DNA of 10,488 bases, from the IMG/VR virus record IMGVR_UViG_2534681663_000022; one strand, given 5' to 3'. Position 1 is the first letter of the stretch, and every line of letters starts with the position of its first letter. The translations under genes were made by a program, and so were the position numbers. The notes under the pieces were generated by a model. That model saw only the letters and a list, made by a program, of their open reading frames with translations. It searched no databases and was not told the DNA's origin. Origin of the DNA: a virus. Its lineage: Duplodnaviria; Heunggongvirae; Uroviricota; Caudoviricetes. Of this stretch, positions 1 to 1,975 are shown piece after piece.

Positions 1-747
1 TCAAGTAATATTGGCCACGGTTTTACAGTAAAAATGGTATCTGTTCTCTGACTCTTCCGGCGTCAGCCCACCGTTATAATGGTGAGGTCTGACGCTGTTG
101 TAGTAGTTCAATATGTAATCATTAATTTGCTGCCGGGCCTCGTCCTTGCCTGCGTAACCATTCGTTGGCACCCATTCTGTTTTCAGACTGCGGAAGAAGC
201 GTTCCATGGGGCTGTTATCCCAGCAGTTTCCCCGCCGACTGACGCTTTGATTTATTCTGCAACGCCAGAGAAGTTGTTGATATTTAAGGCCTGTATACTG
301 GCTTCCCTGGTCGCTATGGAACACGACATCCCGGGGTTGGCCACGCGTCTCATAGGCCATCCGCAGGGCACTGCTTATCAGTGCGGTATCGGCATGCGCT
401 GACAGACTCCAGCCGATAACCCTGCGGGCAAAAAGATCCATAACAACCGCCAGATAGCACCAGCGATTTCCTGCCCAGAGATACGTAATATCTCCACACC
501 ATACCCGGTCTGGCTCCGGTACTGCGAACTGACGCTCAAGCAGATTCGGCAGGCTGGTATGCTCCTGACGGGCATTTTTATACTGATGTTTTCCGGGCTG
601 ACAACTGCTCAGGTTCAGATATTTCATCAGACGTCCGGCACGGTAACGGCTCATCGGGACGCCGTTTTGAGTCAGCATTTCAGCCAGAGTGCGCGCGCCC
701 GCAGAGCCCCGACTTTGGTTCCACGCCCGGCGTATTTCGCTGCACAA
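1..747 (-). CDS. IS3-family transposase OrfB (DDE catalytic domain), expressed as an OrfAB fusion by -1 frameshifting
   Basis: Stop TGA is at 1-3. The DDE-type region includes WCGDITYL...HSDQGSQYT...[15 protein letters not shown]. This frame stays open upstream of 747 to the slip site (..[47 protein letters not shown]..), so the listed TTG start at 747 is probably not the biological N-terminus. Confidence 0.8.
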
Positions 748-866
748 CCTGACTCGTGCCGGATTAACCGTATCGCGTCGTTTTCGCCAGTACCGGTAAC
801 TGCTGCGGTGTATTTCCAGAGCAGAACACAGGCTGACAACCGTGTGGCTGTCACTTAGTCTGGCGG

Positions 867-1178
867 CTATCGTGAACCGTTCAGCGAGTCGGACATTAAG
901 AGCGCGGTAGCCTTTTTTAATATCGTATTTTGTTCCTCCAGACGGCGAACTTGCTTTTCCAGCTCGCGGATACGTTGCTGGTCTGGAGTAATGGGTGTGG
1001 CAGAGGGCGTAATACCCTGGCGCTCTCGCCTGAGCTGGCGTACCCAGCTCTCAAGCGTGGTTGAACCGACATTCATCGCTTCACTGGCCTGTCGATATGA
1101 GTAGCCCTTATCAACAATCAGCTGTGCACATTCCAGCCTGAACTCAGGGGTGAAGGTTCGTTTGGTTTTCTTGTTCAT
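867..1178 (-). CDS. IS3-family transposase OrfA (helix-turn-helix and leucine-zipper N-terminal protein)
   Basis: ATG at 1176-1178 is preceded by AGGTGA; product [13 protein letters not shown]...[18 protein letters not shown] has the typical OrfA architecture. The ORF track extends it to a GTG at 1214; the ATG with a ribosome-binding site is preferred. Confidence 0.8.
912..918 (-). other. Programmed -1 ribosomal frameshift heptamer A_AAA_AAG joining orfA to orfB
   Basis: Minus-strand sequence TTAAAAAAGGCTACC: in the orfA frame it reads L-K-K-A-T; after a -1 slip it reads K-K-G-Y-R and continues into OrfB. Confidence 0.7.
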
Positions 1179-1234
1179 TAAGTCACCTGTTTTGTGTTGT
1201 GGTGAGAATATCACCTTTCATCAGGTGGCCAAAT

Positions 1235-1975
1235 TTAGTGTGCCACTACATTGGGTATGGCGTTATCAACAAAGCCGAGGCCTCCATATTCCGGCTCGGG
1301 TTTACCATCTCTGGAGGCCTGTGCCGCAGCCTTATCGAATTCTGCAATATCACGCCACTGGTAGAGATGATTCTCGCCCCAGCAATAACGGCAGTTAACA
1401 CGGCGAAATTGTGCCAACTGATTGGGGTCGGCCTGGACAATGGCCATCAACTGGCTCACCAGTAAATCCAGGTCTGCGGTATAGCGTTTCTGGTACTGAT
1501 TGCGGAAGTAGCTGATAGCACGATAAACCCTGGCATTTCTAAGCATACGGCTGGCGTTGCTGTTAGCTGTCGCACCTTGCCCCTCATAACCAGCCAGTCG
1601 GTATGCCTCTGTCGGCTTTTTCCCCTGAGCAACCAACATGGCGAATTTTGCCTGCTGGTCAGAAATACCGAATTCATCGGGGCAGAACGAAATTTCTTCC
1701 GTGTCCCCCTCAATCAGGAGTGCATCGGATACAGCCTTTTTTTTCTGAGATTTTCCGTTCTGCCTTTGCGCAGTCTGCGCAGTTTTTTTTCGCGCACTTT
1801 TTTGCGCAGTTTTGCGCATTTCTTTCTGCGCATTTTTCGGAGTTTTTTTGATGTAACGACGGGCTGTTGCGTAGTTCAGTCCCCTTGCTTCACACCATGC
1901 CACCGGAGATATACCGGAGCGGGTGTATTCAGCAATATACTCCTGCTGCAACGCCCCCCAGTCCGGTCTGCTCAT
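1235..1975 (-). CDS. Phage terminase small subunit (N-terminal HTH, Lys-rich linker, Terminase_2-like core); 3' end interrupted by the IS insertion at 1250
   Basis: ATG at 1973-1975 is preceded by AGGA. The segment [48 protein letters not shown] matches the small-terminase signature. The last 5 codons (1235-1249) and the stop lie inside the IS terminal repeat, so the native C-terminus is replaced. Confidence 0.75.
1767..1833. repeat. Array of six palindromic (T/C)GCGCA hexamers interleaved with T-tracts inside the terminase small subunit gene
   Basis: TGCGCAG at 1767, 1776 and 1803; CGCGCAC at 1791; TGCGCAT at 1813 and 1827. T-runs at 1783-1790, 1798-1803, 1834-1838 and 1843-1849. On the coding strand this is the [16 protein letters not shown] linker. 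Confidence 0.5.

Follow-up and report, generated by a model that had tools for sequence, protein, structure and literature searches.

An insertion sequence (IS) of the IS3 family, 1258 bp long and with IS911-like ends, very probably transposed into terS, the small terminase subunit gene of a Rac-type prophage of Escherichia coli 2865200, entering the gene after nucleotide (nt) 725. The window, by which is meant the whole stretch of 10,488 nt analyzed (IMG/VR record IMGVR_UViG_2534681663_000022), holds 1250 of the 1258 bp of the element at positions 1-1250 on the minus strand, followed from position 1251 by the remaining 5′ part of terS and the late genes that lie upstream of it. The junction between terS and the element is genuine, being present in three further contigs besides the source contig of the window. 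The original event was most likely a simple insertion with duplication of a TTG target, a reading that is favored because the strain still encodes the C-terminal 107 amino acids (aa) of TerS, and because paired contig ends at the same site are found in near-identical isolates.

Structure and identity of the insertion sequence

The window is identical to contig AQDJ01000071.1, its source, and this contig supplies the outer 8 bp of the orfB-side end, TGTAGTGG, which are the sole part of the element outside the window and lie just before position 1. In window orientation the complete element reads 5′-TGTAGTGGTCAAG ... GTGCCACTACA-3′, and it agrees at 1258 of 1258 positions with five copies inserted elsewhere, in other E. 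coli genomes. Its orfA-side boundary falls at position 1250: the terminus ...GTGCCACTACA is common to all five of the other copies when aligned, and homology with uninterrupted prophages begins at 1250/1251, at this same edge. The terminal inverted repeat of the orfA side (1225-1250; minus strand, 5′-TGTAGTGGCACACTAAATTTGGCCAC), which has the same terminus in all copies, agrees with that of the other end (TGTAGTGGTCAAGTAATATTGGCCAC) at about 20 of 26 positions in an alignment made by eye. The inner 18 bp of the orfB-side repeat, TCAAGTAATATTGGCCAC, occupy positions 1-18 of the plus strand, and the TGA stop codon of orfB (1-3, minus strand) falls within this repeat. The element thus has the imperfect repeats, the TG...CA termini, the TGTAGTGG... 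sequence at both ends, and a length within the 1.2-1.55 kb range that are typical of the IS3 family.

The coding content is that of a two-frame IS3-family transposase. The first frame, orfA (867-1178, minus strand), encodes 103 aa with an HTH_Tnp_1 domain (Pfam PF01527, E = 1.2e-12) and is called as a gene of that length in record L009, while the orfB-frame part of OrfAB (1-918, minus strand) carries the rve or DDE integrase core (Pfam rve, E = 6.1e-27, together with rve_3, rve_2, and HTH_21). An A6G motif (A AAA AAG; 912-918, minus strand) is positioned for a programmed −1 frameshift, and a shift at this motif yields an OrfAB protein of 392 aa that corresponds to the coding sequence annotated by PGAP as a ‘programmed frameshift’. 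OrfAB scores 360.6 bits against NF033516, ‘IS3 family transposase’ (cut-off 160), over profile positions 1-368 of 369. RNA structure prediction found no significant frameshift-stimulating structure 3′ of the A6G motif (z = 0.22). An earlier, preliminary description of this DNA had recognized an IS3-family element at 1-1260 of the window with a terminal repeat ending at 1250, and the profile match and the identical copies bear it out on both counts. It had also expected the second terminal repeat beyond the window; only the outer 8 bp of that repeat lie there, and the window holds nearly the whole element.

In its general plan the element resembles members of the IS911/ISEc52 group, with which it shares a length of about 1.25 kb, orfA and orfB frames joined by a −1 shift at A6G to give OrfAB, an rve DDE core, TG...CA ends, a GGCCAC motif within the inverted repeats, and target duplications of 3-4 bp. 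The terminal architecture is also shared with the ISEc52 copy of E. coli NH-21, but the two sequences are only about 63% identical in a crude global alignment, and the window element is therefore distinct from ISEc52. PGAP labels it ‘IS3 family transposase, programmed frameshift’ (WP_085968792.1) with no ISfinder name, and a literature search on the end sequences and the protein accession returned no name. The 5′ region of orfA (1060-1182, minus strand) also matches the Rfam family isrC (RF01387, ‘Hfq binding RNA’) at 150.4 bits, against a gathering score of 39; this family seems to describe the 5′ part of an IS3-type transcript and not a free-standing small RNA gene.

Matches of IS length were found by megablast in 2903 of the 5426 complete E. 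coli genomes searched, a count that includes related elements at 90-99% identity. Identical copies occupy six different sites (that of the window and five others), and the element is evidently intact and still active, in agreement with the preliminary description, which had pointed to the open frames, the A6G motif, and the terminal repeats as signs of likely mobility. Target duplications flank the copies in the ParB gene of 13KWH46 (TAC, 3 bp) and in cbrC of FREC5 (GTGG, 4 bp); the other three of the five copies inspected have none. The insertion next to a sequence resembling the inverted repeat that is characteristic of IS911-type elements was not seen in terS, where the best match of either repeat in the 270 bp around the site was 16 of 30 positions, compared with a background mean of 15.7 and a maximum of 18.

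The interrupted terS gene

The native part of terS comprises nt 1-725, that is, codons 1-241 and two nucleotides of codon 242, and lies at 1251-1975 on the minus strand, with 100% identity to LD22-1 and other genomes from position 1250 on. The element supplies the last base of codon N242, followed by four codons (VVAH) and a stop codon at 1235-1237, so that the IS-encoded tail occupies 1235-1250 of the minus strand. The resulting frame runs from 1975 down to 1238 and specifies a protein of 246 aa, consisting of 242 native residues and VVAH, which is deposited as EMV85631.1 from E. coli 2865200. The transposase is encoded on the same strand as terS. The four IS codons and the stop account for the five codons by which the terminase frame had been described as entering the element.

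Uninterrupted terS, as found in 13KWH46 and LD22-1, is 1095 nt long, encodes 364 aa, and overlaps by 20 nt the terL gene (Terminase_6N/6C) that lies directly downstream of it; in the window and its source contig the IS intervenes. The insertion, at codon 242 of 364, therefore leaves two-thirds of the gene before it and does not lie at the 3′ end as had been proposed, and 122 aa, or 34% of the protein, are gone. In this respect the preliminary description is partly confirmed, its observation being genuine and the insertion mislocated within terS. The intact homologue matches PHROG 51, ‘terminase small subunit’, over residues 1-364 (E = 6.4e-75), and scores 36.1 bits against Terminase_2 (PF03592), for which the cut-off is 26.1; the truncated copy of the window scores 26.1, exactly at the cut-off. 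Of 879 complete genomes in which the insertion site is present, 863 have it uninterrupted, and with this and the identity of the element to its five other copies chance does not come into question. That the 246-aa protein is a natural short variant of TerS, a proposal with nothing beyond its open frame to recommend it, is refuted: its last four codons and stop are IS sequence, homology in the 863 genomes runs past the site, and PHROG 51 spans 364 aa.

Truncation divides two recognizable features of the protein. The first CxxC knuckle (C195/C198) is retained and the second (C245/C248) is lost, halving a Cys4 motif, and the Terminase_2 match, which covers residues 122-316 in intact TerS, is reduced to residues 122-219. 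Lost together with the C-terminal 122 aa are a charged coiled-coil, an acidic tail, and the 20-nt overlap with terL. The C-terminal regions of TerS proteins generally contact TerL. Because the Cys4 motif and the Terminase_2 core are split and the region expected to contact TerL is missing, it is a reasonable inference that the truncated protein would be unable to support packaging. The late genes in the window, encoding a Q-like protein, holin, lysozyme, Rz/Rz1, TrkG, a ParB-like protein, and a TET-associated glycosyltransferase (TAGT) homologue, retain open frames, in keeping with the earlier statement that the lysis and cargo genes are intact.

The 5′ third of terS also contains a dense group of palindromes. 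Within 66 bp at 1767-1832 (terS nt 144-209) lie five of the six TGCGCA palindromes of the window and one CGCGCA. The total of six is not above chance, 4.1 being expected, and it is the clustering that is striking. The cluster encodes a K/Q/A-rich linker; it may serve TerS binding as a pac-like array, or it may merely reflect repetition in the coding sequence.

Fate of the 3′ half of terS

Evidence that the remainder of the gene was retained comes from the same strain. E. coli 2865200 also encodes, on another contig, EMV81466.1, which by exact look-up consists of precisely residues 258-364 of TerS, that is, its C-terminal 107 aa. Past the reciprocal junction, where the orfB stop codon lies in frame and M258 is the first start codon to follow, gene calling should yield an ORF (open reading frame) of just these 107 aa; finding it in strain 2865200 argues strongly, though not conclusively, that the reciprocal half exists.

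A second line of evidence is provided by paired partial TerS proteins in at least four NCBI isolates, one protein of each pair having 241 aa and ending in ...NAIP, and the other having 122-123 aa and beginning with (N)PDCPKCC. In GCA_019000485.1 the contig that stops at terS nt 722 shows 2 differences from the window over 9235 positions, and a second contig begins at terS nt 724 and runs into terL and the portal, head, and tail genes. The SKESA assembler drops the last k-mer at a contig end (PMC6172800), and the flanks of a repeat should therefore stop about 1 nt short of the repeat. On the assumption that the NCBI isolate assemblies were built with SKESA, a contig start at nt 724 would lie 1 nt inside a flank that begins at nt 723, and would therefore indicate a 3-bp CAA/TTG duplication. 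The presumed copy of this duplication in the window is the TTG at 1251-1253 (no strand), which is assigned from the contig start in GCA_019000485.1.

Contig ends at this site are not limited to one assembly. Across the NCBI, ENA, and Logan assemblies, more than 12 contigs begin or end flush at terS nt 722-726 (window 1250-1254), with no base of the IS. For the NCBI contigs such ends fit SKESA trimming at an IS border. Two other causes of the flush ends were rejected. A boundary of single-nucleotide polymorphism or mosaicism does not explain them, as a C/T difference at nt 723 occurs in 2 of 75 alleles and the next polymorphisms are at 727 and 729, and they do not represent phage genome termini, as terS is whole and internal in 12 phage records and 80 IMG/VR loci.

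Taken together, these data are best accommodated by an insertion along the usual copy-out/paste-in route of IS3-type elements, with TTG duplicated as a 3-bp target, after which both halves of terS would have been retained. In a simple insertion the reciprocal junction would read ...GACCACTACA|CAATCC before EC2865200_5462, and under either simple insertion or a subsequent inversion ...TTGACCACTACA|CAATCCTGATTGCC would stand upstream of the 107-aa ORF. Truncated and uncoupled from terL, terS would no longer support packaging, and the late genes upstream would remain intact.

Several observations weigh against this account. In the source contig terS does not continue to the left of the element, and there is no target duplication, the two flanks reading ATAA on one side and TTGG on the other (ATAA|IS|TTGG). 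The reciprocal junction, consisting of the IS end and CAATCCTGATT, was found in none of the 5426 complete genomes, nor in IMG/VR or the JGI metagenomes. Unrelated deletion variants, which are rare, likewise give rise to the 107-aa ORF, and among the matches listed all contigs with this ORF are such variants. The flush ends of several Logan and ENA contigs are unexplained by a plain IS insertion with the assemblers concerned. Finally, the loss of packaging is deduced from the sequence.

The far side of the element and alternative explanations

The preliminary description had looked beyond the window start for the remaining repeat, a target duplication, and the continuation of the terminase gene. 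The source contig supplies the first of these, in the form of the missing 8 bp, but not the others, and terL is likewise absent; IS debris of the argW island stands in their place. The earlier interpretation, which assumed that terS and terL continue directly beyond the element, is partly supported. To the left of the IS the contig contains 307 bp, made up of a 207-bp remnant of a degenerate IS3-type transposase gene (CAAATTTCTGCACAGG) and the 5′-end of IS1203, in which the contig terminates. The same 307 bp recur with 100% identity in the argW island (yfdC / tRNA-Arg) of six genomes, ATCC 8739 among them. This unexpected flank arose either from misassembly of the contig across a multi-copy IS or from later recombination between IS copies. 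In a related sample a Logan unitig stops exactly k−1 = 30 nt into the element, which indicates that the IS is multi-copy there and that a misjoin is therefore possible.

The second of these options is the strongest alternative to a simple insertion with a misjoined contig, and we regard it as plausible, though somewhat less likely than not. If the contig is correct, recombination with an inverted IS copy in the argW-island remnant, after or instead of a simple insertion, would have inverted about 1 Mb of the chromosome and left the 5′ part of terS and its 3′ part (with terL and the head and tail genes) far apart, each beside a copy of the IS. The K-12 map places Rac at 1.41-1.43 Mb and argW at 2.466 Mb, and from the orientations of the flanks an IS copy in the argW remnant would face the opposite way to the one in Rac; if the two recombined, the intervening ~1.03 Mb would therefore be inverted, whereas copies in the same orientation would have led to a lethal deletion. 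The exact identity of the left flank to the joint between IS1203 and the IS remnant in six genomes, the lack of a target duplication, and the retention of the terS 3′ ORF in the strain are all consistent with an inversion, as is the lack of duplications at three of the five other IS copies inspected. Against it, the argW flank is seen in a single draft contig that ends 307 bp on in the multi-copy IS1203, a misjoin is possible for the reason given above, and no complete genome among the 5426 E. coli searched has such an arrangement. Moreover, an asymmetric inversion across the terminus region unbalances the replichores and is usually counter-selected.

A different question is whether the position of the insertion is non-random. 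It has to be considered that terS nt ~610-750, between the two CxxC knuckles, is prone to breakage, for example as a region of terminase (pac) cleavage, and we consider this improbable. The idea draws on the proximity of several junctions and ends: IS junctions at terS nt 663, 725, and 736, all in one orientation; deletion end points at nt 613, 674/675 (with three different partners), and 719; and the flush ends at nt 722-726 in more than 12 contigs made by different assemblers. Only the terS site was interrogated, however, and ascertainment bias may account for the apparent clustering. Rates of partial coverage were similar at the site and in controls, with 16 of 879 genomes at the site, against 12 of 771 in a control window in terL and 5 of 793 in a control in the 5′ part of terS; the insertion site has no target resembling the inverted repeat, 16 of 30 matching positions being background; and phage and IMG/VR records hold terS uninterrupted and internal. 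Were the region truly break-prone, IS3-family insertions would be attracted to it in one orientation and deletions seeded there, and Rac-type prophages would tend to lose packaging at one spot.

More improbable still is an IS-mediated adjacent deletion, which would have removed terL and the genes that follow it along with the 3′ part of terS. Such events are known for this gene, since in RX24 the same IS has about 4.2 kb deleted alongside it and in NH-21, where ISEc52 adjoins terS nt 736, nothing of the structural region is left. In strain 2865200, by contrast, the C-terminal 107 aa of TerS are encoded unchanged, the left flank of the element is not prophage DNA, and a deletion reaching the argW island would take out about 1 Mb. 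A simple insertion with TTG duplication, whether or not later rearranged, thus remains the preferred explanation of the terS junction.

Related disruptions of terS and known systems

The exact terS::IS junction of the window is absent from the 5426 complete genomes and from the GTDB representative genomes, the nearest cases being RX24 (62 bp away) and NH-21 (11 bp away). In the complete genome of RX24 (L002, 8993-10250) the same IS adjoins terS nt 663 and has a truncated minor head protein gene on its other side; as the element lies between terS and the head gene without a duplication, ~4.2 kb must have been deleted. In the complete genome of NH-21 (L013, 5833-7082) the prophage occupies another tRNA-Arg site, ISEc52 adjoins terS at nt 736, and the structural genes are gone. 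Both cases resemble that of the window in that an IS3-family element adjoins terS in the same orientation, but they differ in being deletion junctions without a target duplication, with downstream structural genes partly or wholly lost.

Other rearrangements also affect the gene. In several independent deletion variants (L017-L026; P0006 and P0007) different upstream sequences are fused to terS at nearly the same points (nt 613, 674/675, or 719), the partners being the DUF1367 gene, the ParB gene, terS itself at about codon 30, and the region upstream of ParB, and each fusion leaves the 107-aa C-terminal ORF before terL. At the DUF1367 deletion junction an AACCCG microhomology is apparent by eye.

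Disruption of the small terminase gene of a prophage by an IS is already known and is an ordinary mode of prophage decay. In the Sp4 prophage of E. coli O157 Sakai, an IS disrupts nu1 (terS); the prophage, described as having no intact terminase, nevertheless had its DNA packaged, apparently through that of another prophage (Asadulghani et al. 2009, PMC2669165). Sp4 is likewise a lambdoid prophage with an IS-interrupted small terminase gene, but it is a different prophage with a terS of another family (the lambda Nu1 type) and a different IS. A closer comparison is with Rac of E. coli K-12, which occupies the same locus as the relatives of the window prophage (ttcA / intR ... pinR), has the neighbors rzpR/rzoR, trkG, ynaK, ydaY, stfR, and tfaR, and has also lost packaging functions. 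In K-12, the textbook instance of Rac decay, the block from within ynaK to ydaY, with TAGT, terS, terL, portal, and head genes, has been deleted, whereas the window Rac keeps the block with terS broken by the IS. The insertion would thus add one more independent route by which Rac-type prophages lose packaging, beside the ynaK-ydaY deletion of K-12 and the IS-bounded deletions of RX24 and NH-21. Since the IS and the truncated terS are both already in public annotation, the case has little import beyond annotation, where two cautions apply: the ‘terminase small subunit’ EMV85631.1 (246 aa) is a truncated fusion with an IS, and a draft contig that runs through a multi-copy IS is no reliable guide to the true neighbor.

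The Rac-type prophage and neighboring genes

The host element is a Rac-type lambdoid prophage at ttcA of E. coli 2865200, the ttcA locus being known from relatives. LD22-1, which is 100% identical to window positions 1250-10488, carries a full-length Rac-type prophage that adjoins ttcA and has the gene order common to K-12 Rac. On the left this order is ttcA-intR-xisR-ralR-recT-recE-racC-kilR-sieB-racR-like, followed by a cargo block of 8.4 kb; in the middle it continues with DUF1367-YbcO-Q, the lysis genes, trkG, ParB, TAGT, terS, terL, portal, head, and tail; and on the right it closes with stfR-tfaR-pinR-ynaE-uspF-ompN.

The cargo block of LD22-1 (~8.4 kb; L027, 2178-9490; to the right of the window end in the source contig) lies between the replication genes and the DUF1367 gene. 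Its genes encode DUF1971/TehB-like, MFS transporter, gamma-glutamylcyclotransferase, LysR regulator, DUF2254, and BCCT transporter proteins. The view that the element is a prophage without early genes was rejected, as the DUF1971/MFS/LysR/BCCT block is cargo inside a full-length Rac.

Gene content of the window was taken from the ORF listing and Pfam scans, and all named ORFs are on the minus strand. Beyond terS the window encodes the TAGT homologue, the ParB-N protein, TrkG, Rz/Rz1, lysozyme, and holin, and further on two lipoproteins with a TolA C-terminal domain, a Q-like DUF1133 protein, YbcO, and DUF1367. The TAGT homologue (2166-3122) matches Pfam TAGT with E = 6e-35 and PHROG 842, ‘beta-glucosyl-HMC-alpha-glucosyltransferase’, with E = 1.5e-103. 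Its gene is overlapped by that of a ParB-N/Srx-like protein of 264 aa (3091-3885), and the two stand together directly upstream of terS; K-12 Rac retains just the first ~87 aa of the ParB-like gene (ynaK). The pair may constitute a DNA-modification module of Rac-type phages; no TET/JBP dioxygenase gene lies within the window. A small ORF of 69-83 aa, depending on the start codon chosen, is found directly upstream of terS (1979-2230) and aligns with the central part of PHROG 309, ‘terminase small subunit’ (E = 8e-23); its product may be a distinct DNA-binding protein that acts together with TerS.

Between the Q-like gene and the holin gene lie two paralogous lipoprotein-like genes with a TolA C-terminal domain (7043-7438 and 7589-8017; PHROG 5772), whose products may act in superinfection exclusion or in interference with colicin or phage entry. 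The interval between the Q-like gene and these TolA-domain genes contains a match to the Rfam family STnc100 (RF02076; 8128-8314, minus strand) at 86.6 bits.

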